Shown: positions 5,041 through 61,779 of the stretch, one piece after another
Layout: each line of letters begins with the position of its first letter
Numbering within the stretch: position 1 is the first letter of the stretch
Assembly: GCF_963921235.1 (NCBI RefSeq)
Contig: NC_086108.1
Span: 46,254,001-46,318,000, forward strand
Direction: 5' to 3'
From: Mobula hypostoma
Lineage: Eukaryota
DNA length: 64,000 nt
Position numbers and translations under genes: made by a program
Notes under the pieces: generated by a model
The model's database searches: none
What the model was told of the DNA's origin: nothing
The model's input: the letters and a program-made list of their open reading frames with translations, nothing else

Positions 5041-5329
5041 CTGCCAACTGGAGGTGTGGTCACTGTAGGCAAATAAAAACACCTTGGATCTTGAGAAATT
5101 AACATCAATCGGGGACCCCACCCCCGAGAAGACAGTTGTTGAGTTAAAATTAGAAAATTGTGAATGCAGTATTGAACAGTAGAGCACAGTCCGGGCCCTT
5201 TGCCCCACAATGTTGTTCCGATCTATGTAAACATAATCCATGATCAATCTAACCCCATTTACAGAGTCCATAACTCGCCATTTTTCTTAGATTCTGTGCC
5301 AGGAGTCTTCTGAAATGCCCTTATTGTAT

Positions 5330-7333: not shown

Positions 7334-7365
7334 TAAACAAATACTTCGTTTCAGTCCTCAAGTAA

Positions 7366-14255: not shown

Positions 14256-15385
14256 AAACAATTTGATTTTTCCCAGATACAGTACAAATTCAGGGGGCAT
14301 TTATAAGTTAAAAAAAAGATGACCAGAACCTTAATTATATGAGATTGACCTAAAGACTCTCACTTGTTAATGAGAATGAGCACCATTAAGAAGCTGAATA
14401 ATGATGTTACAGACTATTATAGCTCAGTGTTTGCTGGGAAGCTACATCAGCTCCTGTAGAGCAATGAATAACTGAATTGCTGAATCAATAAGAAGGCAAC
14501 ATCCAATATACCTAAGGAAAATACATGTCCAATCTTAATCTGTTTCTTTCTTCCAGACTCTCTTCAAACTGATGAAACGGAAAACAAATACGTAGGTCTG
14601 TGATATATAGAGTTAATTGGTTTACTGTGCCAATGTGCAGAAGTGTATGAAGTGAAACACTAAGGGAAGATCCCATAAATTGTTATCACAGGAAAAGCCT
14701 GACTACCTGAAACATTAAATTCAGTTTGGCATCTATATAATGCCTTAGGGTATCTTTAAGACCAATGAGGCACATCTGTCTTGGAGTTCTGTATTCCTCA
14801 TGTGTTTGAAGCTTTCATGGTAGCAAACAACCTAATTCTCTTCAGAACATCATTCAAATCACAATGTTTCTTTTCCTTGCACTTCTCTCATAATTAGAAG
14901 GAGAAATAGGTTTTCCTACACTGTCTATGGCTTTGTTGCAATTTTCTTTCTTTCAGTTGTTTGTCTTCAGGCTTTATCTTCTAACTAATTTTCTAGTGTG
15001 TGCTACTTTATTCTCATGTCGCATTTCAGGGGTGGTGACTACTCTTTGGTGCCTCTGTAAATGTGGAGCCTAATCAGTAATTGTCAGCTTTTTCCCCGAT
15101 CCTGTCACAAACACCTCACTAGAGATCACTAGATATTACATGGACATGGCATCTGCTCATTCATTTCTCTCCTACATGCTAGTGATCAGGCACATTTTAG
15201 CACAATAGCTCAACAGAGATTAGGAATTCTATTATAGAATAGGAATAGGGATTGAATTTGGGTCTTTTTGCTCAGCTATATGTGTATTTAAGATGCCAGC
15301 TTTGACTATTCTGTCACGCTAATAAGGATTCTTAATTTTAACATCAATCACAGAGAAAAAAGAGATGGATATTAAGAAATACATA

Positions 15386-17192: not shown

Positions 17193-18241
17193 TATTGGAG
17201 AAGAATACTTTTTATTTTAATGTTATCTTTTTCCATGCTAGAGACAATGATTTACTATATTAGAGGCACTTTATACATGGAAGTTCTACATGTTCGAATA
17301 CAGTTTCATTTTTACATGTCAGCTAAGCAAGCAAATGACTAAAACAAGGAAGTTAATTCTATCAATATTTTATGCATTTAAAATAGCATCTATAAAACTG
17401 ATCCTTAATAATTAAGTGCAGGGGATATAAACATTGCTATTTTCTTCCAGCTACCATTGGAAACTCTGAAAATTGCAACATCATATTTAAACACAATCTT
17501 TGTTCATAGCTTTAAATGATAACATTATTTGGTACTTCAATATTTTAATCCATTTATTCTGTTCAGGTGATCAATATAACAAAAAGCCTCATATCATTTG
17601 TGAAGAAGAGACATCTCAAGCTTTCCAATTTTGTCTGGTTCAGCCTTGTATTTGCTACTTTCTCTGTGATCTGTAATTAAGCAAACAAATTTGTTACTAT
17701 TTTTAGCATAGCATTTTAAACATGATGCTCACATTTCTTGAGAAGACCTCAGTAACTGTCATCTAACAGTGCTGTCTGTTAATTGTTTATATATATAAAA
17801 TTATTTGTGGTTCTCCATTGTTAAAATTTAAAGAAAAAAATTACATTGCAAAGAAAGTCAAATTGTACTTTTTCCAGAATATATTTCTCAAGTGATCACA
17901 GAGTTCTTTCCATTTATAGCGTTTGATGTTGAAATGACTAATTCCTTAACAAAGTTAATTATGAAACAAAGTACTTTGTTTTCATAGGAGAGCATGTCTT
18001 TCTGGGGCAGTTTCCCAGGATTAATCACTTTGGCCTTAAAAACAGGTAACTGATTTGAAGTTCTCAGATACTGATCTAAAGAAGTGCTGAACACTATTGG
18101 CTCAAACGATCATTTCTTTTAACAGATTTAAGAATCAAGACAATAATAAGGTGTAAATAGGGGAATGGCAATATAAATAAAATACTACCATTTTTTCACC
18201 AGGCATCTTAAGTGGAGATATACAGACAAATCATCATTACC

Positions 18242-29313: not shown

Positions 29314-30689
29314 CTGAAGCAAAAAGTTAAAAATTGAGTAATGACTGCACATGCAAAACATGGCGCAGTGACACACATTATGTGGACAAACCTGCAGCAC
29401 ATTGTATTTGCAAATCTCACAAACAAGAGGGTAACTGGAGGATAACCTGCACTTCATTGCATTGGGTATTTTACCATTAGCTCCCACATGGGCAGATGCA
29501 AGGCACAATGTAACTAAGAGCTCATTCATAGAACATTCTCATTGCACCCAACCCTCATGACTGCACTGGAGAATCACTCTGGTCCATTCATGCTACGATT
29601 ATTCCCACGCTCTCGAATGAAAATTGGCATCACTTAACATATCTTAAACACTGGCTTGCACAAAATTAGGTTTCCCATAAACTAGCACAATATCTTACAG
29701 AAGGAAAGGTTTTCTTAAACTGTGTTAATAAGTGGAACACTTCAATTTGAAATCTCCAGTGCTGTCATAGACTGTTTTAATGCTATTTGTTTTCTGATAC
29801 TTACGGACATTTAAGAATAGTCAACCACATAAGTAATTAAAAAAACTAGAAATTTATAAATGTACTTCAATGCAAGTTTAATGAATAAAGAAAGTAAGAC
29901 TGCTATTTCTCCTGATCCCCACATAGTCAAAAAATAAACTTTCAAGATAAACATAAAGCTAGAACATTCCTAGTCAGGAACCTCGATTTGTTATTCTTTG
30001 AATTACTGTATAACAACACATATTCTCATCTCCCACATCTGTGAAAGTGACAACTTGCCAGGGGACGTTTGAGGCAGTGTAATCGTTATCAATTTGAAGG
30101 AATGAGAGAAATCCAGTTGTGGTTATTATATAAAGGTTTCCCTGCAGTCTTCCACAGGGAATGTCATTGCCAGAGTCCTTCTCAACCACTCCTCTCAGTG
30201 GTTACAGAATGTACAATGTAGGTTGCTCCCATCCAGCTGTAAAATGGAGTCAAGATAACTACAAAGATTATATCAGTTATGCAAAGATTATAAAATACAA
30301 AGATTATATCAGTTATCTTGCATGTCTTTCTTTTTCCTGGTCTATTAATTGAGAGTGACTATGGCGTAGCAGTTGAAAGTTTGGCTTCTGGCAGAAATAG
30401 TTTCTATCGAATGTCTGTCATACAGGGTGAGATCTGGTGTCAATGCAGGTTGATGTCATGCTTGGCTGTGTCATCAGCCCAATACTTTAGAGTCATAGAC
30501 AGGAATAGCTCAGAAACAGACACTTTAGCCCACCATGTCCTTCATGATGTTCCCTAATTTTTCTCGCTGCAATACTGTGATTCACCTCTAATATACTTCC
30601 AAGAGGAGTTGAACTAATCTACAGGGCAATGGAAAAATGTGTAATGTATGTCACCTCCACTCCAGAACCAAGGTTACCCCAAGCCCAGG

Positions 30690-31650
30690 CATTGCATTAC
30701 ACTATGAAGTCAACACCTGGGTACACACATGCTCCAAGGCTGAGCTCCAAGTCACTGCTGCTTTGTTGACTGAGCCGTATGATACTATTGGCTTTATAGT
30801 TAGCATGTACAAAGCAAACATCCTCTGTCACTCACCCCTGTAGACAACACTATCCACAGGATTTAACTGTTCATGATGAGACTTTGGAAGAGATAGATTA
30901 CTTCCGGTATCTCAGGAGCCATCTCTCAGCAAAGTCAGCTTTCTGAACAAAAGAACATTTTGCGATCAAGGCATCATATCTGATACAAAGTCAGTAATGG
31001 TCTTGTCCTCTTGTATATTGTACATCTGAGAACAAGGCACCACAAAGTATTGTAGAGATATCACCAACATTCACTCTGCAAAGTCCACTAAAGGCACTAG
31101 CAGGAGAAAGGAACAAATGGTCCTGTTCTCTCCCAGGACAACAAGCGGACTCTCAAGGCTCAAATTGCACTGTTTCCTTTGACAGGTAGGCCACATAATT
31201 TGGTTGCCTTAACAGCAAAGTCACAAAAAGAACACTCTGCAACATTAAGATTTGAAACCATGTTTGAAATGTTTCCCCTGCACATCCAGTAACAGTAAGA
31301 TTATAGGATGAAACATTTCAAAGATGTTCCTGGGGTTCAGTGAAAAAATGTAACATTCCCATTGGCCCATGTGGATCCTTAGCCCATGAGCAAAATTAAA
31401 AAGGGGCTGCCAAGGAGGTGGAAAAAATCTCAGGTCTATTTATTGACAGAACAAAAGGCCCAATATGAAAGGATAAAGGAGTCTTGCACCTCACAAACTA
31501 CCCACCCCATTCGTTCTTGCAAGTATCTCCTATCCCACTTGTGGCTGATTCTGAGATCCTCTACTGGCCTCAAACAGAGCGGAAACCAATTATCCTTGAC
31601 CTCAAGAGAGCACCTAGGATGGAAAATACACCGCTGAAGTAAGCACTCCT
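30690..31650 (+). mobile_element. RTE-clade LINE remnant (highly decayed)
   Basis: DYFRYLRSHLSAK followed by a KRTFCDQGI..DTK-like segment resembling the RTE RT C-terminus (FPYLGSHLS...KRVF.D..L...TK). Confidence 0.5.
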
Positions 31651-31714
31651 AACCGCTGGAAGACAACTTACAATTCACAAGATAGTACTGCATTGATAAA
31701 CCCTGTGATAGCTG

Positions 31715-33120
31715 CAAACACAAGGAAATCTGCAGATGCTGGAATTTCAAGCAACATACATAAGAGTTGCTGGTGAACGCAGCAGGCCAGGCTGCATCTC
31801 TAGGAAGAGGTACAGTCGACGTTTCGGGCCGGGACCCTTGGTCAGGACTAACTGAAAGAAGAGATAGTAAGAGATTTGAAAGTGGGAGGGGGAGGGGGAG
31901 ATCCGAAATGATAGGAGAAATCAGGAGGGGAGGGGTGGATCTAAGAGCTGGAGAAAGGAGAAGATCATGGGACGGGAAGCCTGGGGAAAAAGAGAAGGGG
32001 GAGGGGAGCCCGGAGGGTGGAGAGCAGGCAAGGAGTTATAGTGAGAGGGACAGAGGGAGAAAAAAGAGAGAGAAAAAAAGGGGGGGGAATAAAAAATATA
32101 TTTTAAAAAATATTAAATAAATAAATAAGGGATGGGGTAAGAAGGGGAGGAGGGGCATTAACGGAAGTTAGAGAAGTCAATATTCATGCCATCAGGTTGG
32201 AGGCTACCCAGACCGAATATAAGTTATAGAGTGTCATTCACACATTATGATCTCCCGATGGGCACTGCAGTCCACAAAGAACGTTTGAAGTATAGATATT
32301 GTAATAATTAGGAACCACAATGTAGGAACAAATAAATTGCACACACCGAGTCCTGCAACAGGACTAGAAAGGAAAGGTGAGGCAAAGCTTTATCAGCCTT
32401 CCCAGATAGATGTAAAAGTTCGAATTGCACAGTGAGGATATCATGCCATCCTTCCCAATGTTATGTGAAATACCATCCCTAAAAACGCCTAAAGTATTTT
32501 ATATCTGGTTGCAGTTCTGAGACTCGGTGTGTGCAATTTATTTGTTCCTGCATTGTGGTTCCTAATTATTACAATATCTATACTTCAAACGTTCTTTGTG
32601 GACTGCAGTGCCCATCGGGAGATCATAACGTGTGAATGACACTCTATAACTTATATTCGATCTGGGTAGCCTCCAACCTGATGGCATGAATATTGACTTC
32701 TCTAACTTCTGTTAATGCCCCTCCTCCCCTTCACACCCCAGCCCTTATTTATTTATTTAATATTTTTTAATTCCCCCCCCCCTTTTTCCCCTCTCTCTTT
32801 TTTCTCCCTCTGTCCCTCTCACTATAACCCCTTGCCTGCTCTCCACCCTCCGGGCTCCCCTCCCCCCTTCTCTTTCTCCCCAGGCTTCCCATCCCATGAT
32901 CCTCTCCCTTCTCCAGCTCTTGGCTCCACCCCTCCCCTCCTGTCTTCTCCTATCATTTTGGATCTCCCCCTCCCCCTCCCCCTCCCACTTTCAAATCTCT
33001 TGCTAACTCTTCCTTCAGTTAGTCCTGACGAAGGGTCCCGGCCCGAAACGTCGACTGTACCTCTTCCTAGAGATGCTGCCTGGCCTGCTGCGTTCACCAG
33101 CAACTTTTATGTGTGTTGCT
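31715..33120. mobile_element. Palindromic (fold-back) Penelope-derived element, 1406 bp
   Basis: Inverted arms 31750-32359 and 32508-33120 (~610 bp each), 148-bp spacer, 11-bp TSD TGTGATAGCTG (31704-14 / 33121-31). Confidence 0.9.
33021..33056 (+). ncRNA. Minimal type I hammerhead ribozyme motif (short stem III, Penelope-associated)
   Basis: AGUC-CUGACGA-A-GGGU(CCCG)GCCC-GAAA-CGUC-GACU: stem I AGUC/GACU, conserved CUGANGA and GAAA cores, GUC cleavage triplet, palindromic ACGU in place of stem III. Confidence 0.75.
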
Positions 33121-33129
33121 TGTGATAGC

Positions 33130-36100
33130 TGTTAAGTTTTGTAACTTCAGAACATTAAATTAATTCAAAAGAAGACACAGGAGTCCAGGAATGCAGGTCT
33201 AGCTTGGTGTTTACTTTAAGTGAAACACACGTTATCATGCAGTAGCATTGTGATGCATGCAATTTGAGTATTTCATGTACCCCATAATGAATTATTGAAA
33301 CGAGCAATGCTTGAACAAACAAGATAGTTTCAAGACTACTGAAATATTATTTAAATATTAAATGCACTGCTGCTGCTTAGCTATAAACTCCAACTCAAAA
33401 GAGAATGCATCTCAGCCATATGCAGAATATAATATGCAACCCAACTACAATATACAGACATCCATAGCATAGTAAATTTTTAATTGTCCCATTCAGGCCT
33501 AAAGATTTAATTGCTGTGAAGGCTTTCTTACTCTTCTGGGATAATGTCTTTTCTGATGGGGGGGGGAGGGGGAAGGGATCAATCTGCTTGAGGGGAGAGA
33601 CCTGTGGCTGTGAAACAATTTCAGGTTGTGGTGGTTATAGTTGTTGACTCTGAGACTGCAGGAAGTGGTTCTGACAGCGGTACCAGCTTTCTTTTCTAAC
33701 ATTTGATTCTGCTCTCCTCTAGTGGATTGATGTGCTGCCTCCAGGTGATATCGGACGCAAACTCCACTTTGTAGGACAGTGGTCCAGTTCCGTCCTTAAT
33801 CTTTCTGCGTACCCACTTTTGATCATCTCTGTAGTCCTTCACCAGGACTCCTTGTCCAGGAGTGAAACATTGAACCTCCTTTTTTGAGGGGCGTTCAGTT
33901 TGCCCCCGCTGTTTGTCCCGAATACTCCTTCTGAGATTGGATTTGAAGAGATCCAAGCGTGAGCACAATGGATGACCCAGGAACAGCGTAACTGATGAGT
34001 TGTTGGTTGTGGACTGTGTTGCATTGTGATATACAAGGAGGAATCTGGTGAGCTTCTAATTCCGTGTCAGTGCAGTGTATTTTGCTCATTGCTCGCAGTG
34101 CATTCTTTAGACTCTGGACAAAGCTTTCCATCAAAGCCACTTGTAGTTGGGTGATATGCTGCAGATGTAATATGTCTTATTCCATTCATTTTTAGGAATG
34201 TTCCGCCACAAACTGTGATCCATTGTCACTGACTACGTGTTCTGGAACACCAGTCCTTGAGAAGATGCTTTTCAGCATATCAACACTGGATGGCTGTAGT
34301 GGAGGCTGACGGGAAAACTTCTGGCCACTTTGTAGCTGCATCCATTTCGACCAAGAAATGTGTGCCCATGAATGGTCTGGCAAAATTCAGATCAATCCTC
34401 TGCCAGAGCAATGCATGCCATTCCCAAGGATGGGCAAGTGCTACTCTTGGCATCCCAAACTGTGCATAGTAAGCTGCTCGATCTGCTGATCTATACCAGG
34501 CCGGAAAGCAAAGCTTTGGGCCAATACCTTCATTATTACCATGCCTAGATGATGCCTAGGAGCGTGTAGGTCCTCCAGTGCTTTAGCTTTCAACTTGGAT
34601 AGTACAACAACTCTTAAGCCCCATATAAGGCAACGTCCATGAAGGGCAAGTTCATCTTGGCACTGGTAAAAATGGGGGAACTGGAGTTTCTGCTGCATAT
34701 TCCAGCCATTATGGTAGACCTGAAACAGTATGGGGTTTTTTCTGGTGTGCCTTTGTATCATCTCTGCCTTAATAGGGTGACTTTTGCTTTGCGTTAGGGA
34801 GAATATGTCAAGAGTAGAGTCTATTTTTGTAATTTTTTTCTGGTATTTCCTTCCAAGGACAATCCATTAGCATTTCCATGATTTGTCATCCTCTTGAATT
34901 CATTCTGTAACAGAGCCCAGCTCTGCATTTGTGATCTGCTGTTAGTGGAACACCTTTCTGTGAATTGAAAATGAACAGTAGTTTTTAATCACCAGTAATG
35001 AGGATAAACTCTCTCCCATACATATACTGGTTAAAATGTTTTACACTCCAAACGAGACTCATGGTTTTTCTGTGCGTAATTTTTCTCTGCAGTGGTAAGG
35101 GAACGTGATGCAAAGGCTATGGGGCGTTAATTTCCATCACGCATAAAATGTGACATGACTGCATCTATTCCATAAGGTAAGGCGGCACAGACAAGCTTCA
35201 CTGGACAATGCGGGTCATAATATGTCAATACATTCTCCGAGGTCACCATTTCCTTTTCCATTTTGAAAGCCAGTTCACACTTTGCTTTTTCCATTGCCAT
35301 TTCCTCCTGATCTGCAGTAATGAGCTCAAGTGGGGGAGCATAGTAGCCGGATTTGGCAGGAACATGTTATAGTAGTTGGCAGATTCTAAAAAGGACCAGA
35401 ACTTTGATATGTCCTTTAGCCTTGGGGCATCCACCGCTGCTTGAATTTTCTCAACACACTTGTGTAATTCTTGTGTGTCAATAGTGTGACCACAGTAAGT
35501 GATGCTTGATTTAAAGAATTCATACTTGTTGCGTCATGCTCTGAGCTCATAATCTTCTAATCTTTTAACACTGTCTTGAGGTTTTGGAGATGTTTCTTTC
35601 ATCCTTATGGTTAACAATGATGTCATTCAGGTAACACTGAGTTCCTGGGCAGCCTTGTGACTCCAAGTCCATTGGTTTCTGCCAAAGTGCAGGTGAAGAT
35701 ACTACTCCTATTGCAGTGATAAAACCCTTTGTGAGGGTTTATAATGAGAAACACCTTGGAGTCTTCATCTATCTCCATCTGTAGGTGTGCTTCAGATAGG
35801 TCCATTTTGCTGAAGTGCATCCCTCCAGAAAGGTTTGCAAAGATATCCTCTATCCTGGGTAGAGAGTATTGATCTACTTCCAGTACTGGGTTGATGGTGA
35901 CCATAAAATCACTACCGATCCCAACAGACGCATTCTTCTAGGCTACAGGGACCAATGGTGTTGCCCATGGGCTCCAGTCAACCTTGGAAAGAATTCCTTC
36001 AACCTCCATGTGATTTAGCTTGCTGGCTACCTTATCACAAATGGTATAAGGAACTGGACAGGCTTTGCAAAACTTTCTGTGCGGCATTTTCATTTAACAC

Positions 36101-37745
36101 TATTTTACCCTTGATATGTTTGAGTTTTCCAGTGCTATCCTTGAACACTGCCGTGGCATCATCCAGTACCCTTCTCAATTCGCTTTCACTTGACTCTATT
36201 ACACTGGATGTGGCTTGCGAATGGTGGATGGATCTCCAAATAAATTGTAGTTGGCTCAGCCAATCACATCCCCACAATACTGACTTTCCTGTTTTCACCA
36301 CATACAAGCTTAATGTGATTTGTTGGTTGTTGTATTTCACAGTTATGAATGTCATTCCCACTGGAGTTAACATATATTTTCTCCAATATAAGTTCTTAGT
36401 TGAATATCTGCAGGCTTCAGTTTGATATCTTTGAAATGCTGTTCAAACTCATTTTGTGGAATGACTGAAACAACTGAACCAGTGTCATAACGTTCATGCA
36501 GATTAATGCTATTTTGGAACTGCAACTTGACTTTTTATCTTTTTCTCTTCCCTGCGCACACTATTTATTTTGATCAGCCTGAAATGCACTTCGTATGTGT
36601 CCTACTTTGTTAGATTTTCTGCAGATTTCACCTTTAAATCTGCATTGGTCTGGTGTATGTGAGCTGATGCCACAATGGTAACATAATTTGTTTGGCCAGG
36701 CTGGTTTCTGTTTTGGTGTTGCAATTTTGATCATGCTTACTTTCATTCCCGACTGTAACTCAATTGCCTCTCATTGAAACAGCAATTTCAACTGCTTTTT
36801 AAAACGTAAGTTGTGCTTCAGTTAGGAGCCATTCATGTATACTTCCTTCTAAGATTCCACATTAAATGATCTCTCAGTGTATCATTAAGGCCTTTCCAAA
36901 CTGACAACGCTCAAATAATCTCTTCAATTCAGCCACATATGCTGAAATGGACTCTCCTTCTTTTTGATTCCGTTTATGAAAACTAAAGTGTTCTGCTATC
37001 AACAGTGGCTTTGGTTGTAAGTGTTCCTGCATTACTTTGACAGTATCAGCAAAACTCATATCTGTTGCTTTGGTTGGAGCAGTCAAGCTGTTTGCCTTTA
37101 AACCAAATGCACTTAGCAGCATTGGCTCTCGCTTCTCATAGGCGATTTAATTTGCTTCAAAATACTGTTCAATTTTCTCAGTATATAAAATCTAGTTATC
37201 TGTTGTGCAATCAAATTCACAAATCTTTCTGATGTAGCCAGCCATTTCTAACATTATTTATGATTATTATCATTTGGTACTCACCCTTTATGAACCCATG
37301 AATTCATCTGTTTTCTGCCTTTTTTTAATACTTGATTATGTCTTCCCTTCTGAAGAACTCATGCTGCACTGCTTTTAACTTGACTGCCTCTGCACGTGCT
37401 GGGCTGTATTCTTTACTTGCTATTCCTCACTGCTTTTTTTTAGTTCGAATGTCTCACTGCGCTTCAACAGGTCGATAGCCATCTCAGGTTTTCTTTTTAA
37501 AATACCTCACTGCCACTGTTATGTTTTGTAACTTCAAAACATTAAAGTAATTCAGGAATGCAGGTCTAACTTCGTGTTCACTTTAAGCAAGGCACACACA
37601 TATCACATGATAGTGTGACAATGTATGCAATTCATGTATTTATGCATATACCTGTAAACAATTATTGAAACAACCAGGAAGGCTCAGTCAAACAATATAT
37701 TTACAAGATTACTCAAATATTACTTAAATTATTAAATACACAACA
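33130..37745 (-). mobile_element. Full-length but decayed Gypsy LTR retrotransposon (Mag / K02A2.6-like)
   Basis: LTRs 33130-~33368 and 37517-37745; 5-bp TSD ATAGC; PBS-like GTGGCAGTGAGG (37516-37505); gag (HLQPKPLLIAEHFSFHKRNQKEGES), CCHC knuckles, RT (YSLPRIEDIFANLSGG), integrase (GVPEHVVSDNGSQF) fragments. Confidence 0.95.
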
Positions 37746-37899
37746 ATAGCTGACTAATATTGCTATTCACAGCCTATCACTTGTGACATTTCATGCATTG
37801 CACAATAGGAAAATCGCACGATGTACAATCTACATACAAATGCTCTCAATTTCTTAATAACTAATCATAACCTCAAATCCCGGGTGGAATTTGCTGAAC

Positions 37900-38840
37900 T
37901 GCATAATATTTACAGAATGGCTGCACTTACATTATTTGCAAAAAAGTCTGTGCAAAGTACCTGAAACCCAATTAATTGCCGGTAACCAACAAGAATTCAA
38001 GAAATGCAGCTGCAATCTGTGCAAAGTCATCAAAGCAGTGAAATGACAATACGGGGACAAGATCCAGTCACAACTTTCCACCAACAACGCACGCAGCTTA
38101 TGGCAAGGTCTGCACACCATCACAGACTTCAAAGCTAAGTGCAGGGGTGCTGCTAACATCGCTGCCTCTCTCCCGGGTAAGCTAAATCTTTTTTACTCTC
38201 GGTTCGACGTCACCAATAATGAGCCTGAGGAGAGCCACTGAAGCGACCTGCACCTTGGTCATCTCTGAGGCTGAAGTACGCAGGTGTTTCCAATGAGTCA
38301 CAAGGCTGCGGGACCAGACAGCATTTCAGGGCGGGTACTCTGGATGTGGGCAGCACAACTGATAGGTGTGTTTACGGACATTTTTAATCTCTCCTTCTCC
38401 CAGTGTAGAGTACCCTCCTGTTTCAAAACATCCACCATTGTCCCTGTACCTAAAAAGACCCAGGTAACATGTCTGAACGACTGGCGTCCTGTCACCTCAA
38501 TAATAAGCAAATGATTTGAGAGGCTGGTCAAGGACTAGATCTGCAGCATGCTACCACCCACACTGGACCCTGTACAATTCGCCTACCGACACAACTAATT
38601 GACAGATGATGCAATAGCCACAGCTCTACACACTGTCCTTACACACCTGGAGAAGAGGGATGCTTATGTGAGAATTCTGTTCTTGGATGACAATTCAGCA
38701 TTCAGCACCATAATTCCCTCCAGGTTTGACAAGCGACCTCGGCCTTCACCCTACCTTGTGCATCTTGATCCTGGACTTCCTGTCAGATGCCCGGCAGGTG
38801 GCAAGAGTGGGCTCCCTCACCCCTGACCCTCAACACAGGA
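37900..38840 (+). mobile_element. Rex1/Babar-type LINE RT fragment
   Basis: [13 protein letters not shown]...FTDIFNLS...[13 protein letters not shown]...[25 protein letters not shown]. Confidence 0.9.
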
Positions 38841-38842
38841 CA

Positions 38843-41800
38843 GCGCAGAGAGTTTAAAAAGGAGACCACCCTATACAGCAGGCAGCTGTCAGAGCGGGCA
38901 GCGGAGTGAGTGGTAGCAGAGTGTAGGGCTTTGGCTTCAACGGGCTTCGGCGGTAAACGGGAAGAGGCAAGAGCGAAGCACCAACTCTTCCCCCCCCCCC
39001 TTAGCGAATTGGCCTGAACAGATAGGAACAGCAGGGCTCTCACAGCTAACGGTACGAGCTAACGGTTTAAAAAGTTTGTGTGTTTGGCAAGGTAAGTGGG
39101 TGAGTAGACTTATTTTTCCTGTTTCATTCCTGTAGAATTAGATAGCATGCCTGCAGGGTTAGTGCTTTGTTCAAGGTGTCAGATGTGGGAATCCTGGGAG
39201 ACCTCCAGCCTCCCTGATGGCCACATCTGTGCCAGGTGCACGAGATGCAGCTCCTCAGAGACCGTGTTAGGGATCTGGAGCTGCAGCTTGATGACCTACT
39301 GCTTATCAGGGAAAGTGAAGAGGTGATAGACAGGAGCTACAGGGAGGTAGTCATCCCTAGGCTACAGGGGTCAGAAAACTGGGTGACTGTCAGGAGAGGG
39401 AAGGAAAATGCCCGGATGGTGCAGAGCACACCTGTGGCTGTCCCCCTCAGCAACAAATATCTTGTTCTAGATGCTGTTGAGGGGGATGACCTGACAGGGG
39501 ATGCCCATGGTGACCGGGTCTCTGGCACTGAGCCTGGCGCTGTTGTGCAAGAGGGAAGGAGGGAGAAGAGGAATGCGGTAGTCATAGGGGCTTCCAGAGT
39601 CAGGGGAACAGACAGGAGATTCTGTGAGCCTGATAGAGATACCCACATGGTGTGTTGCCTCCCAGGTGCCAGGGTACGGGATGTCTCAGATCGGGTTCAG
39701 AATATTCTGAAGGGAGAGGGCGAGCAGCCAGTTGTCTTGGTACATGTTGGTACCAATGACATAGATAGGACAAGAAAGGAGGTCCTGAAGAGAGATTTCT
39801 GGGAGTTAGGAAGGAAGCTGAGAAGCAGGACCTCCAGGGTGGTAATCTCGGGATTGCTACCTGTGCTACGTGCTAGCGAGGGCAAGAATAGTAGGATCAG
39901 GCAGATGAATGCGTGGCTGAGAGACTGGTGCAGGGGGCAAGGCTTCAGATTCTTGGATCATTGGGATCTCTTCTGGGGGAAGTATGACCTGTTCAAAATG
40001 GACAGGTTACACATGAACCTGAAGGGTCCAATATCCTGGTGGGAAGGTTTAATAGAGCTGTTAGGGAGGGTTTAAACTAATTTGGCAGAGGGATGGGAAC
40101 CGGAATGATAGAGCGGAGGAAGGGGAAAACAGAAATAAGTCTAAGATAGTGAGCAGTAAAGATGTCAGGAAAGACAGGCAGGTGATGGGGCAAATTTGTA
40201 GACATTGGGATGAGTTGCAGTGCAATAAAGTTGCAGTGAAATCAAAGCGAAAAGTACCAAATACTGGTCTTAAGGTGTTGTACTTAAATGCATGCAGCAT
40301 AAGGAATAAGGTGGACGATCTTGTCGTACAGCTACATGATTGGCAGGTATGATATTGTGGCCATCACTGAGACCTGGCTAAAGGATGCATGTCTCTGGGA
40401 ACTGAACATCCAAGGATACATGGTGTATCGGAAGGATAGGAAGGTAGGCAGAGGGGGAGGCATGGCTTTATTGGTAAGAAATGATATTAAATCATTAGAA
40501 AGAGGTGATATAGGATCGGAAGGTGCAGAATCTTTATGGGTTGAGCTAAGAAATTGCAGGGGTAAAAGGACCCTGATGGCAGTTATTTATAGGCCTCCAA
40601 ACAGCTGCAGTGATGTGGACTACAAATTACAACAGGAAATAGAAAAGGCTTGTCAGAAGGGCAGTGTTATGATAATTGTGGGGGATTTTAACATGCGAGT
40701 GGATTGGGAAAATCAGGTCGGCACTGGATCTCAAGAGAGAATATTTGTAGAATGTCTGCAAGATGGCTTTTTAGAACAGCTTGTTGTTGAGCCCACTAGG
40801 GGATCGGCTGTACTGGATTAGGTATTGTGTAATGAACCGGAGGTGATTAGAGAGATTGAGGTGAAGGAACCCTTAGGAGGCAGTGATCATAACATGATTG
40901 AGTTCACTGTGAAATTTGAAAAAGAGAAGCCGAAATCTGATGTGTTGGTATTTCAGTGGAGTAAAGGAAATTATAGTGGCATTAGAGAGGAACTGGCCAA
41001 AGTTGACTGGAAAGGGACACTGGCGGGAAGGACGGCAGAGCAGCAGTGGCTGGAGTTTATGTGAGAAATGAGGAAGGTGCAAGACGGTATATTCCAAAAA
41101 AGAAGAAATTTTCGAATGGAAAAAGGATGCAACCGTGGCTGGCAAGAGAAGTCAAAGCCAAAGTTAAAGCAAAGGAGAGGGCATACAAGGAAGCAAAAAT
41201 TAGTGGGAAGACAGAGGATTGGGAATTTTTTAAAAGCTTAAAAAAGGAAACTAAGAAGGTAATTAAGAGGGAAAAGATTAACTATGAAAGGAAGCTAGCA
41301 AATAATATCAAAGAGGATACTAAAAGCTTTTTCAAGTATATAAAGAATAAAAGACAAGCGAAAGTAGATATAGGACCGATGGAAAATGATGCTGGAGAAA
41401 TTGTAATGGGAAATAAGGAGATGGCAGAAGAACTGAACGAGTATTTTGCATCAGTATCACTGAGGAAGACATCAGCAGTATACTGGACACTCAAGGGTGG
41501 CAGGGAAGAGAAGTGTGCGCAGTCACAATTACGACAGAGAAAGTACTCAGGAAGCTGAATAGTCTAAAGGTAGATAAATCTCCCGGACCAGATGGAATGC
41601 ACCCTCATGTTCTGAAGGAAGTAGCTGTGGAGATTGCGGAAGCATTAGTGATGATCTTTCAAAAGTCGATAGATTCTGGCATGGTTCCGGAGGACTGGAA
41701 GATTGCAAATGTCACTCCGCTGTTTAAGAAGGAGGCAAGGAAGCAAAAAGGAAATTATAGACCTGTTAGCTTGACATCGGTGGTTGGGAAGTTGTTGGAG

Positions 41801-43152
41801 TCGATTGTCAAGGATGAGGTTACAGAGTACCTGGAGGCATATGACAAGATAGGCAGAACTCTGCATGGATTCCTTAAAGGAAAATCCTGCCTGACAAACC
41901 TATTACAATTTTTTGAGGAAATTACAAGTAGGCTAGACAAGGGAGGTGCAGTGGATGTTGTATATTTGGATTTTCAGAAGGTCTTTGACAAGGTGCCACA
42001 CATGAGGCTACTTATCAAGATAAGAGCCCATGGAATTACGGCAAGTTACATACGTGGATAGAGCGTTGGCTGATTGGCAGGAAACAGAGAGTGGGAATAA
42101 AGGGATCCTGTTCTGGTTGGCTGCCGGTTCCCAGTGGTGTTCCACGGTGGTCCGTGTTGGGGCTGCTTCTTTTTACATCGTACATCAACGATTTGGATTA
42201 TGGAATAGATGGCTTTGTGGCTAAGTTTGCTGACGATACGAAGATAGGTGGAGGGGCTGGTAGTGCTGAGGAAACAGAGAGTCTGCAGAGAGACTTGGAT
42301 AGATTGGAAGAATGGGCAAAGAAGTGGCAAATGAATTACAATGTTGAAAAGTGTATGGTTCTGCACTTTGGCAGAAGAAATAAATGGGCAGACTATTATT
42401 TAAATAGGGAGAGAATTCAAAGTTCCGAGATACAACGGGACTTGGGAGTCCTCGTACAGGATACCTTTAAGGTTAACTTCCAGGTTGAGTCGGTTGTGAA
42501 GAAGGCGAATGCAATGTTGGCATTCATTTCTAGAGGAAGAGAGTATAGGAGCAGGGACGTGATTTTGAGGCTCTACAAGGCGCTGGTGAGACCTCACTTG
42601 GAGTACTGTGGACAGTTTTGCTCTCCTTATTTAAGAAAGGATGTGCTGACGTTGGAGAGGGTACAGAGAAGATTCACTAGAATGATTCCGGGAATGAGAG
42701 GGTTAACATATGAGCAACATTTGTCCGCTCTTGGACTGTATTCCTTGGAGTTTAGAAGAATGAGGGGAGATCTCATAGAAACATTTCGAATGTTGAAAGG
42801 CATGGACAGAGTGGATGTGGCAAAGTTGTTTCCCATGATGGAGGAGTCTAGTACGAGAGGGCATGACCTAAGGATTGAAGGGCGCCCATTCAGAACAGAA
42901 ATGCGAAGAAATTTTTTTAGTCAGAGGCTGGTGGATCTATGAAATTTGTTGCCACGGGCGGCAGTGGAGGCCAAGTCATTGGGTGTATTTAAGGCAGAGA
43001 TTGATAGGTATCTGAGTAGCCAGGGCATCAAAGGTTATGGTGAGAAGATGGGAGAGTGGAACTAAATGGGAGAATGGATCAGCTCATGATAAAATGGCGG
43101 AGCAGACTCGATGGGCCAAGTGACCGACTTCTGCTCCTTTGTCTTATTGTCT
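38843..43152 (+). mobile_element. Near full-length CR1 LINE (ORF1 zinc-finger/leucine-zipper plus SGNH esterase; ORF2 APE-RT), inactivated
   Basis: ORF1 from ~39147 (CSRCQMW...HICARC, LQLDDL, VVIGAS, HVGTND, FLDHWD); ORF2 pieces 40149-43060 with few stops and frameshifts; TTGTCTTA-type tail. Confidence 0.95.
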
Positions 43153-43779
43153 AATTAAACTGAATTCAATTCAATTCTTGTCATAGTTTCTAATATATGC
43201 AAATAAGCGACTTACATTGCACATAAAATTATCTATTTTAGGCTAGAAACTTAGCTAAGCAATAACAAGTTCCTTTACATTAGAAATGGCAGGTAAAAAG
43301 CCTTCATTCACATCAAACCCAAGAGATTTCTGTTCGATTGCAGTGGTGAAATTTGAAAGCAACAGAGCTTGTGAGAGGATTTTGGATTGCTGATAGTAGT
43401 TGAATTTTTATGTTTGGTTTTACATGCTCAAAATGTTACTACTGCCGAGATGAGGACAAAGAGCAACACTTGTGCTTTCATTATTACCACCGACCTATTA
43501 CAAATTATAAAATTAATTGTATACCATGAAAATCAAATTATATCTACCAGCATAAATTATTGGAAAAGTGATCCTGATTATTCTTAGAAAAAAAAGGTAA
43601 TTATAGTGCAGTTCTAAAGCAGAGAGAAGACCTATGTATCTGCCAATTACTAAATAATTGACAATGATGATAATATTTAAATGAACTGACATCACTTTTT
43701 CTCACTCATCAACAACAAATCATGGTGTGATTTGAAACACTTGATTAACAATATCAAGAAACGATGAATATAAATTTGA

Positions 43780-43965
43780 AGCAACAATCTATTAGAGGAA
43801 GTTAGCGGGTCAAGCAACATCTGTGCAGGGAATGAATTTGCCAATGTTTTGGGTTGAGACCTTGTGTCAGGACAAATAAGTCCTTCCTCCACACAGATAC
43901 TGCTCGATTCACTGAGCTCTTCCAGCAGATTGGTTGTTGTTCCAGACTACAGTATCAGTATCTGC
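43780..43965. mobile_element. Short fold-back Penelope-derived remnant (paralog of 28835-29010)
   Basis: caatctattagaggaagttagcgggtcaagcaacatctgtg and its inverse cacagatactgctcgattcactgagctcttccagcagattg. Confidence 0.6.
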
Positions 43966-44123
43966 AGACTGCTGTGTCTCAAATACAAATGTGTCTTCTG
44001 TGCTTTACATACTATTCTTGAAACCACATATGCAAAATTAATATTTTTCTGTACTCCAGTATGACCCAGAACTTCAACTGGAAATAGACAGAATTATGTA
44101 AATGCATACTAAACAAAGACCAC

Positions 44124-45168: not shown

Positions 45169-46242
45169 CTGAAACGGAAAGTTAAGAATTGAATAATAAG
45201 TGCACTTATGCAGAATGTGCCAAATTTGAAATTCTCAAGGCATCTTATCCAGTGTAGTGACACACAGTATGTGGGGAAACCTGCATTATATTGTACTTGT
45301 ACATCTCACAAACAGGAAGGTAACTGGAGAACGCTCCATACTTCACATCATTGAATATTTTAACATCTCCTCCGATATGAACAATCAGCCGTTCTTTGTT
45401 AACTCCAGCTACCACCTCCCAGCCTCTGATGCTATTTTCATTCTTCCCTTCTCCATCTGCCTGTCATCCCTCTTGTCTGCACCCTCCTATTGCTTATCAG
45501 CTCTTGCTTCGCCTGTCCCCCCCTCTTCATTTTGGCTATCTCCCCTCTTTCTCTCGATCCAGAGTAAGGGTCTCGACCCTAAATATTACCAATCCACTTC
45601 CCTCCGGAGGAGCTGTCTGACCAGCTGAGTTCACACAGAGGCTTTGCTTTTTGCTGCATGACCTTACATCTACAATCTCTGGTGTCACTGGTGGAGGAAG
45701 ATGTTACCAGGGAAATCAAACTTTTATAGCATTGGAAAGACTTCCTAAATGCAATAAGATAAAATCTAACCTGAAAAGCATCCTTTCATTTATATGAGTG
45801 TGTCAATTCAAATACGAATGCACTGTCTATACTGGTATGGGCATGTGATGAGTCAAACCTGGGAAAATGTTGAGTGGTTGCACACAAAATGCATTTGGTC
45901 TCACCCACCGTGAACTCAGTGCTGAATGTAGAGGAAGAGAGGGAGGTGAGATGAGCTGACACCTAACCCTACAGAGGTTTAAGTGCAGGCATCAGCAATG
46001 TGCTAGCTTTTGCACTATAGCTAGCTGGCAACTCTCCATCAAACCTCTTGAATTTTGAGAGCTCGCGCCTGTCAAAGGTCTTTGGAAGGCTTTGTTTTTG
46101 TTTCCTGATACTTAAAAAAGTCCAACTAGGCTTAATTAAAAGTAGAAATGAAGTAGAACTGTACTAATATCACAGTCAAAGTTGAGTTTTACTGTCATGG
46201 AAAGGGACAAAATTGTGGAAATGCAGATTAATCAAAGATCAC

Positions 46243-46428
46243 CTTCACACGTTGGTACAGGGGATGACCACTTTCCAGAGCTTTCACATTGCTGTCTCTC
46301 CGACCCGACCAAGGAAAACCCTTCTGCACAGCTATAAACACAGACTGAGCGGAAAGTGAAGTCTCCACCTGGATGGGAACAGTTCTGATATCCATTCGCT
46401 GGAAGCTTTGGAACATCACAGCTCACCG
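46243..46428 (-). CDS. Selectin sushi/SCR exon 2
   Basis: 186 bp, phase 1-1; VSCDVPKLPANGYQNC...SERQQCESSGKWSSPVPTCE. Confidence 0.9.
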
Positions 46429-46989
46429 CTGAAACGGAACATGGATGTTTGAGTAATAAATGCGCTTAATATATTCTCAAAGCACTTCACCAGTGCAGTG
46501 ACACCTATTACATGGGGCCAGGCATCAGCACATTGCACTTGCAGATGTCACAAACAGGAGGGTAAACTGGAGCTCACTCCACACTTCACTGTATTGACTG
46601 TTTTAGCATCTGTTTTATGTGAATGGTCAAGCTGTCGTCAGCCATTCTTTGTTAACTCGGGCTACCACCTCCCAGCCTCTGATGCTATTTTCATTCTTCC
46701 CTTCTCCATCTGCCTGTCACCCTCCTTGTCTGCATCCTCCTGTCACTTATTAGCTCTTGCTCCACCCGTCCCCTACCTCTTTGATCTGGCTATCTCCCCA
46801 CTTTCTCTCGATCCAGAGTACAGGACTTGACCCTAAATGTTACCCATCTCCTTTGAGGTACCTTCTGACCAGCTGAGTTCACACAGAGGCCAGCTTTTTG
46901 CTGCATAAACTAGCATCTACAATCTCTGGTGTCTCTGTGAGTGTTGTAGTATAGAGAGACCAAGGGGTACGAGTACATAGTTCCCTGTC

Positions 46990-48010: not shown

Positions 48011-48922
48011 CTGTCAGTGGTGAAGAAAGCATATGGTGTGCTTGCTTTCATTGGGCAGCGTATTGAGTACAAGAGGCGGGATGTCATGTTACACCTGAAT
48101 AAGATGTTGATGAGGCCACACCTGGAATGTTGTGTGCAGTTCTGGCCACCATCTGGGAAGGATGTGATTCCACTAGAGAGACTGAGAGAAAATTCACATG
48201 AATGTTGCTGGGAGTGGAGTGCTTGAGTTTTAAGCAGAAAGTGAAGTAGGCTGAGGAGTGAACATAGAAATTTATAAAGTTATGAAGGACATAAAGAGGG
48301 TGAATTATCACAACCTTTCTACCAGGGCAGTCAAGTCTAAAACTAGAGGTATTGGTTTGAAGTGAGAGGAGAAAGATGTTACTCGGGAAATAAAACTTTT
48401 ATAGCATTGGAAAGACTTCCTACATTCAATAAGGTAAAATCTAACCTGAAAAGCATCCTTTCATTTATATGAGTGTGTCAATTCAAATACGAATGCACTG
48501 TCTATACTGGTATGGGCATGTGATGAGTCAAACCTGGGAAAATGTTGAGTGGTTGCACACAAAATGCATTTGGTCTCACCCACTGTGAACTCAGTGCTGA
48601 ATGCAGAGGAAGAGAGGGAGGTGAGATGAGCTGGCACCTAACCCTACAGAGGTTTAAGTGCAGGCATCAGCAATGTGCTAGCTTTTGTACTATACTATAG
48701 CTAGCTGGCAACTCTCCATCGAACCTCTTGAATTTTCAGAGTTCGCACCTGTCAAAGGTCTTTGGAAGGCTTTGTTTTTGTTTCCTGATACTTAAAAAAG
48801 TCCAACTAGGCTTAATTAAAAGTAGAAATGAAGTAGAACTGTACTAATATCACAGTCAAAGTTGAGTTTTACTGTCATGGAAAGGGACAAAATTGTGGAA
48901 ATGCAGATTAATCAAAGATCAC

Positions 48923-49108
48923 CTTCACACGTTGGTACAGGGGATGACCACTTTCCAGAGCTTTCACATTGCTGTCTCTCCGACCCGACCAAGGAAAACC
49001 CTTCTGCACAGCTATAAACACAGACTGAGCGGAAAGTGAAGTCTCCACCTGGATGGGAACAGTTCTGATATCCTTTCGCTGGAAGCTTTGGAACATCACA
49101 CCTCACCG
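48923..49108 (-). CDS. Selectin sushi/SCR exon 1
   Basis: 186 bp, phase 1-1; VRCDVPKLPAKGYQNC...SERQQCESSGKWSSPVPTCE. Confidence 0.9.
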
Positions 49109-51100
49109 CTGAAACGGAACATGGATGTTTGAGTAATAAATGCGCTTAAGATATTCTCAAAGCACTTCACCAGTGCAGTGACACCTATTACATGGGGCCA
49201 GGCATCAGCACATTGCACTTGCAGATGTCACAAACAGGAGGGTAAACTGGAGCTCACTCCACACTTCACTGTATTGACTGTTTTAGCATCTGTTTTATGT
49301 GAACGGTCAAGCTGTCGTCAGCCATTCTTTGTTAACTCGGGCTACCACCTCCCAGCCTCTGATGCTATTTTCATTCTTCCCTTCTCCATCTGCCTGTCAC
49401 CCTCCTTGTCTGCATCCTCCTGTCACTTATTAGCTCTTGCTCCACCCGTCCCCTACCTCTTTGATCTGGCTATCTCCCCACTTTCTCTCGATCCAGAGTA
49501 CAGGACTTGACCCTAAATGTTACCCATCTCCTTTGAGGTACCTTCTGACCAGCTGAGTTCACACAGAGGCCAGCTTTTTGCTGCATAAACTAGTATCTAC
49601 ATTCTGTGGTGTCTCTGTGACTGTCGTAATACAGGCAGACCAAGGGGTACGAGTACATAGTTACACAGTGGTGAAGAAAGCACATGGTGTGCTTGCTTTC
49701 ATTGGGCAGCGTATTGAGTACAAGAGGCGGGATGTCATGTTACACCTGAATAAGATGTTGGTGAGGCCACACCTGGAATGTTGTGTGCAGTTCTGGCCAC
49801 CATCTGGGAAGGATGTGATTCCACTAGAGAGACTGAGAGAAGATTCACATGAATGTTGCTGGGAGTGGAGTGCTTGAGTTTTAAGCAGAAAGTGAAGTAG
49901 GCTGAGGAGTGAACATAGAAATTTATAAAGTTATGAAGGACATAAAGAGGGTGAATTATCACAACCTTTCTACCTGGGCAGTCGTCTAAAACTAGAGGGT
50001 ATTGGTTTGAAGTGAGAGGAGAAAGATGTTACTCGGGAAATCAAACTTTCATAGCATTTTTTTTACACTCTTGCTAGCTAGCAACTATCCGTTGAACTAT
50101 TATATGAACCTTGGCGCATTCTGGATCATGAGTGTGGAATGAACTGCTAGGAGAAGAGGAATATGGAAACTCCTAAAAAGGAACTGTATGCCTACATATA
50201 TTCATGCCTCAGTACAAAGGAACATTATTCCACTGTGGACCTGCTGCTCTTTTCTTGCCAATGCACAGATTGTAGTCACTGACAATTTAAAAACACCTTA
50301 CTGCTGTGCTGTACTAATTGCTGTCTGGGTTCCAGCTCTCAATGACATTGTCTGCTAAGCCACAAGTCTATTGACAGTGTAAGTGCTGTTGATTTCTTTT
50401 GAAATGACTGAAAAAGAGGCGGTGCAGGGGAGCGAGCATTGCTCCCTGTTTACTGATGTTGATCTTAATGTCGTAGTGAGACATACAAGGCCTATAAGGT
50501 GCCAGGAAGTGGTTGAAGAATAAGTTCCTGGAGTGCTTTGCAATGCAGAAAGAAATGTTATTAACTTACAAGATGTGCCAAGGTTAGTGCTCTGATACAT
50601 AGAAGCAGAAGTCCAAAAGCTCAGTGAAAGGCTATCTTAAATGAAAATACAATCACATATATCCTTTATTGTCAATGTTCTAAGTTCTATGGTCATTTAT
50701 TTAGCCTAACAAATGACATGTGCAGATATAGTGTCCTGAGATGCTTGGGAAAGAAGGGGTTCTGCATAGGTTTTCATTGGCCGTATCTGAAGTGGAGATC
50801 ACTTGGTTAGTTACCAGAGACACCTTAGCCTTCCTTTCAGCGGCGATATGAGCTGCTCCAAAGGCAGAAGTGAACTCTCTGCCATTTGTTCATACAGTGG
50901 CATGTTGTGATACTCTGAGTCAAGGCTGATTTCTTGTACTTTATTCTTTCAGAGACATCAGAATCAAAGCAACCACATTCTGTGAGGCCTTCCCTTGGAG
51001 GGATTGAGTTGTAAACTTCCATGGAGATAAAAATAAACTGGAGTGAAAGAGATGAAGGGATTCTGATGACAAAGTAAACAGGAATAACTAGCATAGTGAG

Positions 51101-61760: not shown

Positions 61761-61779
61761 GTCACGATGAGGCTACACA

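Follow-up and report, generated by a model that had tools for sequence, protein, structure and literature searches.

How did an intron of a selectin gene in Mobula hypostoma come to hold a palindrome in which sequence of a Penelope-like element (PLE) and unrelated DNA are mirrored together, and what becomes of its RNA? We addressed this question in a 64,000-nucleotide stretch of contig NC_086108.1 (the window). Selectin exons were found at 59.0, 55.8–55.4, 53.1, 49.1, 46.4, 45.2, 44.3, 29.3 and 24.8 kb; the membrane exon, which a hydrophobicity scan did not detect, was placed with the protein of a relative. A preliminary description of this DNA had located the palindrome in a selectin intron, and it indeed lies between sushi exons 4 and 5 of this minus-strand gene. 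The features are as follows.

29314–44123, minus strand: selectin intron between sushi exons 4 and 5, 14.8 kb
31704–31714, plus strand: left copy of the target-site duplication (TSD), 11 bp
31715–31747, minus strand: 33-nt PLE tail, on this arm only; the PLE copies at 7.3 kb and 61.2 kb terminate in it as well
31748–32223, minus strand: left PLE arm, with the last 21 codons of the RT/GIY-YIG frame (32223–32158) and the 3' terminal repeat
31814–31849, minus strand: minimal hammerhead motif in the sense of the selectin pre-mRNA, whose G8C at 31840 predicts a dead ribozyme
32224–32352, minus strand: left inner arm, the mirrored 129-bp copy of host DNA; cluster of T>C changes (minus-strand A>G) of run X5 at 32225–32333
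32353–32520, no strand assigned: spacer and hairpin loop, 168 bp of host DNA, with the new junction at 32352/32353; the X5 contig matches it without a difference
32353–32649, plus strand: all 297 bp of captured host DNA, comprising the spacer and the right inner arm
32650–33122, plus strand: right PLE arm, with the same frame end and terminal repeat and without the tail
33021–33056, plus strand: minimal hammerhead motif with an intact core, antisense to the selectin gene
33121–33131, plus strand: right copy of the TSD, sharing two letters with the start of an older LTR

The inverted arms (31748–32352 and 32521–33122) were identical at 566 of 592 aligned bases, with 26 mismatches and 23 gap positions, and flank a gap-free spacer of 168 bp (32353–32520). 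The palindrome itself had been recognized in the preliminary description; its 148-bp spacer, with arm ends at 32359 and 32508, had to be revised because a 7-bp inverted match within the spacer (32353–32359 versus 32508–32514), beyond a 6-bp indel, had been counted into the arms. The 11-bp direct repeat TGTGATAGCTG at 31704–31714 and 33121–33131 is the TSD; the first two letters of its right copy are also the last two of the right arm, and the chance expectation for such an 11-mer within two 80-bp boxes is ~0.0015. The outer 33 nt (31715–31747) were present on the left arm only, as a one-sided PLE tail. With the direct repeat located and the tail on one arm, the earlier view of a single insertion with one 11-bp TSD was confirmed. 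One TSD frames both ends and a single arm carries the tail; we therefore rejected a later, local duplication of a simple insertion in inverted orientation. Another member of this family, inserted at 6761–7346, is arranged in the same outward-facing way: its duplication measures 13 bp, its tail is one-sided, and a templated piece of 13 nt sits at its apex.

A peptide from the arm was identical at 17 of 20 positions to the C-terminus of the stingray protein P0122. This protein gave a GIY-YIG match (E 0.002, under the Pfam curated cut-off), and its Atlas neighbours carry HTH_animal, GIY-YIG and RVT_1. It also has a three-cysteine cluster upstream of GIY-YIG, a part that the element itself lacks: only 21 codons of the frame with RT and C-terminal GIY-YIG are left in the element, and both arms begin there. 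The TSD of 11 bp, the inverted 5'-truncated copy and the 33-nt tail confined to the left arm are the features of insertions by endonuclease-bearing (EN+) PLEs, and a one-sided tail of 30–40 bp with an inverted 5' copy is described as typical for PLE insertions (PMC8557442). The inserted element was an endonuclease-bearing Penelope-like element, probably of the Neptune type; the Neptune clade is marked by a cysteine-rich linker between RT and endonuclease. For the decayed PLE piece at 61.7 kb, the Atlas search gave no usable match and Pfam no domain.

A hammerhead motif had been reported in each arm, and a motif was present in both; the left core, however, carries G8C, and Rfam gave no hammerhead at gathering score in the window, nor at E ≤ 10 in 31600–33300. 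The motif therefore rests on inspection by eye and on a pattern match to a published minimal descriptor (PMC4209133), which the right-arm motif fits in its core, its extra base before stem II and its palindromic 15.2–16.2. G8C abolishes cleavage in an Anolis PLE (PMC11167929). The description of the element as ribozyme-bearing did not survive in a working sense, as the copy in the sense of the pre-mRNA has G8C, the intact copy is antisense, and both motifs are buried in the predicted stem. The ribozyme plays no part in the effects of the structure.

We compared the region 32130–32545 with contigs of four public runs (X1, X5, X6 and X7). The summed contig depth of X1 and X7 over this region dropped from 1e5–8e6 on the PLE part to 9–56 on the inner part, and the largest class of loose ends at 32223 (985, 116, 72 and 850 contigs in X1, X5, X6 and X7) ran on into the PLE frame. 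Within the window, the inner sequence (32224–32649) had no match elsewhere, in keeping with the earlier statement that inner arm and spacer are unlike the other Penelope remnants. That the inner DNA could belong to the autonomous Penelope consensus was also checked, and the PLE family continues differently at 32223. The inner DNA is a host segment and not PLE consensus. Six-frame translation of 32200–32660 gave no long frame, and an exact 24-nt spacer pattern had 0 matches in metagenome contigs.

A second version of the host segment, 6–8% diverged and without the PLE junction, was present in two species. The last 101 nt of X1 record 5 (789 nt) matched 32222–32322 with 6 differences, while its first 688 nt are absent from the window; X7 record 29 (425 nt) is the counterpart of this paralogue, with 5 differences. 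Over 32410–32545 there were two contigs per run, with 0 and 14 differences in X1 and 4 and 12 in X7, and the diverged contigs of the two runs have most variants in common. The paralogue is known as two separate contigs, whose equal depth and divergence suggest a single locus. In X7, both contigs continue across the boundary of spacer and right inner arm (joint depth 16.5 = 7.8 + 8.7). This join is therefore the native one, and 32352/32353 is the new one. The 297-bp segment is contiguous at the paralogous locus also (records 5, 8, 29 and 32, and the joint 32327/32545). X5 had no contig of the paralogous locus over 32130–32545, which has no bearing on expression of the paralogue. Among the contigs listed, no DNA contig bridged the host–PLE junction, and 32242–32283 was covered in X1 and X7 by paralogue contigs only. 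The missing arm contigs at these positions possibly reflect pruning by the assembler beside very deep PLE nodes, and the hole proves nothing.

The new junction 32352/32353 was bridged in all four runs and was present in organisms A, B and C. These contigs bear on whether the palindrome is a product of chimeric reads or of assembly. Long inverted repeats are assembly-prone (PMC8557442), no single contig among those listed spans 32130–32545, and the outer junctions lie beyond the compared region; nevertheless, the arms carry 26 differences plus indels, the insertion has a TSD and a one-sided tail, and the inner junction was bridged by contigs from four samples and as many studies, X1 possibly being the sample of the window itself. 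We consider an artefact unlikely, indeed the least probable of the readings weighed here.

The preliminary description had inferred a non-autonomous, ribozyme-bearing fold-back retroelement able to carry foreign DNA. A stable, ribozyme-driven family of this kind would be consistent with the TSD, the hammerhead motifs and the inner segment common to both arms, and inner DNA was found in runs of several organisms. However, X1 and X7 contain only this version and the PLE-free paralogue; the two spacer versions in each of these deep DNA runs therefore indicate a one-off capture rather than a family, and one inherited insertion would account for the presence in A, B and C. The two hammerhead motifs, moreover, lie on opposite strands, one with G8C, and are not in tandem. 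We regard such a family as barely tenable, and a one-off PLE insertion with host capture as very probable. Small shares of inner DNA in organisms D–H carry no evidential weight.

The junction of near-unique host DNA with PLE in both arms is a rare marker. Its presence in both means that the arms descend from one chimeric template, and we believe that its doubling probably arose through a template jump, then fold-back and annealing, within one integration. In PLEs, the tail is defined by a pair of RT start sites, and each target strand is nicked and extended (PMC11167929); the formation of PLE inverted structures has been described as undefined (PMC8557442). At this locus, the PLE protein would have nicked both target strands, and two cDNAs would have been primed at two PLE start sites 33 nt apart. 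Synthesis of the tail-less cDNA would have covered 473 nt of PLE RNA and then, across 2 shared letters, switched to a host template and proceeded for ~297 nt; the joint of host segment and PLE does share 2 letters, and since the source is absent from the window, the jump would have been to a distant template. The 3' end of this cDNA could then have folded back on the 7-nt inverted match and copied itself, mirroring 129 nt of host DNA; in the sequence, 129 bp of the 297-bp host segment are mirrored in the other arm. This self-copying would yield PLE-sense DNA, which could anneal to the tail-bearing cDNA, with repair sealing both ends. The fold-back step leaves 6 missing bases beside the 7-nt match unexplained. 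We see even chances for this exact route of template jump, fold-back and annealing, and we lean slightly towards the overall account, namely an old, dead EN+ PLE insertion with a single capture, a fold-back and an ADAR-edited hairpin.

A single event predicts equal ages. The host arms differ at 2 of 129 positions compared to 20 of 269 between this locus and the paralogue (P 0.017), and all arms at 26 of 592 compared to the same 20 of 269 (P 0.07). Under a single event, conversion between the arms or a donor of greater age as an intermediate is therefore required. An older donor at a third locus would explain why the arms resemble one another more than the paralogue and is part of another reading, a 5' transduction, in which a truncated PLE sat directly downstream of the host segment at the donor (a lost paralogous allele or a third locus). 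Read-through RNA of host sequence and PLE end would have been reverse-transcribed twice, from both nicks, and the cDNAs, ending at 129–136 and 297 nt of host sequence, would have paired through the 7-nt match, head to head. No self-copying would be needed to give both arms one identical junction and a single arm the tail, and PLE termini suffice for moving unrelated sequence in trans (PMC3846280). This reading, however, requires a donor that was lost or is missing from the assembly: X1 and X7 showed no donor but two spacer versions only, each at single-contig depth, and at the junction the paralogue continues as non-PLE sequence. We consider a 5' transduction possible although unlikely.

Alternatively, the capture may have occurred in one arm only, and strand switching or gene conversion may afterwards have lengthened the repeat inward by the mirrored 129 bp. 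Arm identity does peak at the centre (127/129 in the mirrored host part, 439/463 in the PLE part), but the inward rise was not significant (P 0.09; inner 250 versus outer 342, P 0.15). Since organisms A, B and C all have the new junction, any inward extension would have to be old. Later mirroring appears improbable to us.

Several known systems come close to this structure. Outward-facing arms, a TSD of ~10 bp, a tail at a single end, a 5' truncation that falls within the reading frame and a hammerhead in the terminal repeat are shared with the EN+ PLE insertions described in PMC8557442, PMC3846280 and PMC11167929; the insertions described there end in PLE, whereas both arms here run inward into the same host sequence. 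Adineta vaga Penelope captures likewise carry unrelated non-coding or genic DNA within one TSD, moved in trans, and in Pen2a part of the inserted segment is repeated upstream in inverted orientation (PMC3846280). In contrast to the captures in that account, the cargo here is fused to a truncated frame end with no upstream terminal repeat; both arms hold it in mirrored form, and two vertebrate species have the source paralogue. L1 twin priming, RT template switching and cDNA fold-backs offer two primed ends, jumps over short matches and chimeric inserts from two RNAs (PMC11702581); L1 as described there copies adjacent parts of one RNA, whereas here the same 3' part occurs twice, with another enzyme at work and no poly(A). 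Non-LTR retrozymes are also non-coding PLE derivatives with type I hammerheads (10.64898/2026.07.22.740005, PMC4209133), but those described form families of at least 2 consecutive tandem units with complete hammerheads in one orientation, whereas this structure is inverted and single-copy, with its motifs on opposite strands and one of them dead by G8C.

The 1428-nt minus strand was predicted to fold as one long stem (–1179.8 kcal/mol), and the inner 453 nt gave a fold z of –26 versus 100 shuffles, which supports the long dsRNA proposed earlier. The DNA cruciform proposed with it was set aside because the spacer is 148–168 bp, compared to the <9 bp needed for stable hairpins and fork arrest in yeast (PMC8053094); a hairpin may form in exposed single strands.

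In the selectin pre-mRNA, the arms would pair as a ~600-bp stem that ADAR would hyper-edit, sparing the loop, and one contig supports this step. X5 record 16 (448 nt, 32188–32536) carries 20 T>C changes, every one within 32225–32333. With position 32323 excluded because the arms differ there, these are A>G changes on the selectin strand that affect 19 of the 32 adenosines of the paired arm but none of the 45 in the spacer (Fisher P 7e-10). Of the 19 changed sites, 1 had a G on its 5' side, as did 5 of the 13 left unchanged (P 0.029); 3' G enrichment at changed sites was absent (2/19 versus 0/13, P 0.5). Another 6 of the contig's 26 differences lie in the PLE part, where the change type is unassignable. 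At 18 of the 20 T>C sites no DNA contig compared had a C, part of these sites being covered only by the paralogue (X1, X7) or by the organism B contig (X6, from 32249).

This single contig thus combines clustered A>G changes on the transcribed strand, confinement to the paired region and depletion of 5' G, all features of ADAR hyper-editing. Its depth is 3.49, perhaps one molecule, at which differences may be errors; among the runs listed with inner DNA none is registered as RNA, so that X5 is only guessed to be RNA, and its sample differs from the DNA samples. The cluster could accordingly be sequencing error, an allele, or a DNA copy of edited RNA, but a single change type, found in the paired arm only and on the host gene's strand, with 5' G depleted and 18 of 20 sites lacking C in the DNA contigs compared, leaves these readings a small chance. 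Editing of the hairpin RNA is in all likelihood real and fits ADAR hyper-editing, so that of the earlier proposals an ADAR substrate is probable, on the evidence of this one low-depth contig. The other proposed roles, as a substrate of Dicer, which would be marked by phased 21–23-nt RNAs from the stem, or of MDA5, found no support; MDA5 is unlikely to bind a duplex that is intronic and edited. Known ADAR targets include a palindromic Harbinger in Xenopus and a hyper-edited Penelope in lizard, and ~200,000 hyper-edited sites are reported in elephant shark (PMC5625713). The self-folding repeats in that report are, like this locus, single insertions that form long, near-perfect dsRNA and are hyper-edited with 5' G depleted; unlike them, the edited stretch here is captured, near-unique host sequence at one locus.

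Taken as a whole, this locus is a single clear example assembled from known parts and not a new mobile element family, and the most likely reading of the hairpin is neutral debris within the intron. The near-uniqueness of the mirrored part ties editing to a single locus, an assignment difficult to make for a very-high-copy repeat, and the junction makes the fold-back and donor-RNA models separable with ray genomes. As a long shot, PLE integration in rays may turn single-copy host pieces into long inverted repeats in one step, a retroelement route to trans-acting hairpin RNA genes comparable to the inverted-duplication origin of plant microRNAs and fly hairpin RNAs. If this were true, an insertion in a transcribed intron would yield hairpin RNA matching a distant locus, here as a hairpin RNA gene under a leukocyte/endothelial selectin promoter; and if some molecules also escaped ADAR and were diced, new trans-acting hairpin RNA genes would arise in vertebrates.

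The palindromic insertion at 31704-33131 lies in a selectin gene. The best structure matches of the lectin exon were L-, E- and P-selectin (E 6e-46 to 3e-38), and its nearest proteins were from devil rays (Mobula), at 99% and 96%. The selectin of a relative, P0025, matched, in collinear order, minus-strand exons at 59.0, 55.8-55.4, 53.1, 49.1, 46.4, 45.2, 44.3 and 29.3 kb. Because P0025 exons map to either side of the element, it falls within a 14.8-kb intron; the preliminary description had placed it in an intron of the selectin pre-mRNA.

24.8 kb, minus strand: selectin membrane exon, from the P0025 mapping
44123-29314 (14.8 kb), minus strand: selectin intron containing the element, with normal splice sites

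A selectin sushi exon has been copied in a recent tandem duplication (45693-46982, 48368-49662 and 50018-50058; 1.3 kb at 97.5% identity); there are five sushi domains in P0025 and four in P0029. LINE reverse-transcriptase fragments in the selectin intron (42057-43157) and upstream of the gene (62817-63914) are 93.6% identical, and a Janus/Ocnus-family gene exon lies downstream (4669-5286, minus strand; Pfam E 5e-10).

Alignment of the inverted arms (31748-32352 and 32521-33122) gave 566 identical, 26 mismatched and 23 gap positions, with a gap-free spacer of 168 bp. The 148 bp described earlier is reproduced by adding a 7-bp inverted match past a 6-bp indel. The palindrome is real and is a single insertion of a Penelope-like element (PLE), given the 11-bp direct repeat at both edges (31704-31714 and 33121-33131) and the tail of 33 outer nt found on the left arm only. 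The minus strand was predicted to fold as a single long stem (z = -26 for the inner 453 nt). Both arms are outward-facing PLE 3' ends, and each arm starts 21 codons ahead of a stop. The arm peptide matched the C-terminus of the stingray protein P0122 at 17/20 residues. P0122 gave a weak GIY-YIG match (E 0.002, below the cut-off), its Atlas neighbours have HTH_animal, GIY-YIG and RVT_1, and the cysteine cluster present in it suggests a possible affiliation of the PLE with the Neptune clade. In typical PLE insertions one copy is inverted and 5'-truncated and one end has a tail of 30-40 bp; this element resembles such EN+ insertions in both respects (PMC8557442; PMC3846280). With an Anolis PLE in vitro, both strands were nicked and extended, two start sites delimiting the tail (PMC11167929).

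A second insertion of this PLE family (6761-7346) has outward-facing arms, a 13-bp target duplication, a one-sided tail, a short inverted arm of 77 bp (6775-6851), 13 apex nt copied from mid-element, and a hammerhead core without one G of the GAAA strand. In an older copy of a related subfamily (61236-61780, minus strand; about 70% identical), the hammerhead is decayed and an inverted arm was not detected. Adjoining the element's right side is an older LTR retrotransposon (33130-37743; LTRs 33129-33367 and 37516-37741, 180/211 aligned bases identical). It has a 5-bp duplication, and an integrase zinc finger was weakly matched (E 0.0086). Since the PLE went in at the border of this retrotransposon, the first two letters of the LTR form part of the PLE target duplication. 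Inverted repeats of ~200 bp (15383-15784 and 16979-17195), one end tandem-duplicated at 96% identity, flank a transposase-like remnant (16483-16875), an arrangement that we take to resemble a Tc1/mariner element.

The inner DNA (32353-32649, 297 bp, with 129 bp mirrored in the left arm at 32224-32352) had no match elsewhere within the window. Some part of 32224-32520 was contained in 17 of 23 listed sequencing runs, and contigs of four, X1 and X5 (organism A), X6 (B) and X7 (C), were aligned to 32130-32545 only. In the deep DNA runs X1 and X7, contig depths summed to 1e5-8e6 across the PLE part and dropped to 9-56 across the inner DNA (the sum is not copy number), and at 32223 the PLE family continued into its own reading frame in 985, 116, 72 and 850 contigs (X1, X5, X6, X7). 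Because of this drop and the different continuation, the inner DNA is not PLE consensus, and its description as captured, unrelated DNA holds. Exactly two contigs per deep DNA run covered 32410-32545, with 0 and 14 differences in organism A and 4 and 12 in organism C; most variants of the diverged contigs were common to both organisms, and both organism C contigs crossed from the spacer into the right inner arm. One contig in each run matched 32222-32322 (6 and 5 differences) and extended 688 (X1) and 324 nt (X7) without match to the aligned PLE part. The simplest reading of these contigs is a single paralogous source locus, its pieces on separate contigs, in which 32353-32649 would be contiguous; the host segment and the PLE would have been joined across 2 letters common to both, and 32352/32353 would be the newly made junction. 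All four runs, two from organism A and one each from B and C, had contigs bridging 32352/32353 (X1 may derive from the sample behind the window itself), so the insertion is older than the split of these organisms. None of the listed DNA contigs bridged the host-PLE junction. Two spacer versions per deep run in 32410-32545 tell against the earlier proposal of a retroelement able to carry foreign DNA: the element is not a family, it is one PLE insertion with a single capture of ~300 bp from another locus.

Both arms have an identical host-PLE junction and thus descend from one chimeric template. We favour, at about even odds, one particular route within a single integration, each step of which we infer: two cDNAs would be primed, the tail-less one would switch to the host template, fold back on a 7-nt inverted match and copy itself, and the product would anneal to the tail-bearing cDNA. 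For L1 there is published evidence of twin priming, of template switching and of cDNAs annealing to themselves (PMC11702581). Counting against this single-integration route, the mirrored arms differ at 2/129 positions vs 20/269 between this locus and the paralogue (P 0.017), so that arm-to-arm conversion or an older donor is needed; 6 apex bases are also unaccounted for. In the main alternative, a donor locus would have given rise to read-through RNA that was copied two times; PLE ends are able to mobilise unrelated DNA in trans (PMC3846280), but no donor locus was seen in the aligned contigs of the four runs (32130-32545), and we consider this route rather unlikely.

Each arm has a minimal type I hammerhead motif matching the PLE description in PMC4209133, which also describes opposite-strand pairs separated by 100-700 bp; Rfam detected no hammerhead at these motifs. 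Minimal hammerheads of this kind need a dimer. The left-arm copy, sense in the selectin pre-mRNA, has C in place of G8 at 31840, a change that abolishes cleavage in an Anolis PLE (PMC11167929); the right-arm core is intact and antisense to the gene, and both are paired in the predicted hairpin. The element had been called ribozyme-bearing; on these features its ribozyme is predicted to be unable to act in the selectin pre-mRNA. Nor is it a retrozyme as defined in 10.64898/2026.07.22.740005 (tandem units with intact hammerheads).

The preliminary description also proposed a DNA cruciform and long dsRNA as a substrate for ADAR, Dicer or MDA5. MDA5 is cytoplasmic, and the hairpin RNA is intronic. 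A cruciform is unlikely with a 148-168 bp spacer, given that stable hairpins and fork arrest in yeast needed spacers <9 bp (PMC8053094). Every component of the element is already known, and editing has been reported for self-folding repeats, for Penelope in lizard and for elephant shark RNA (PMC5625713). Within the literature searched, no account came up of a PLE insertion whose two arms mirror host DNA of traced source, nor of a ray structure of this kind being edited; supplements of PMC3846280 and PMC5625713 may contain like cases. In X5, guessed to be RNA and from a different sample of organism A, one 448-nt contig (depth 3.49; it may represent one molecule) spans 32188-32536, across both the PLE-host and the host-spacer junction. 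Of its 26 differences, 20 are T>C (A>G in selectin-strand terms), every one within 32225-32333; the other 6, untyped, are in the PLE part, and the spacer has 0. Omitting 32323, where the arms differ, 19/32 arm adenosines were changed vs 0/45 in the loop (P 7e-10); omitting 32225 as well left 18/31 changed in the arm (P 2e-9). A 5' G preceded 1/19 changed vs 5/13 unchanged sites (P 0.029), a depletion that is a common ADAR motif (PMC5625713), and no 3' G excess was found at changed sites. This single contig, from a run guessed to be RNA, accords with the proposed ADAR substrate: the selectin pre-mRNA hairpin probably forms and is probably A-to-I edited.
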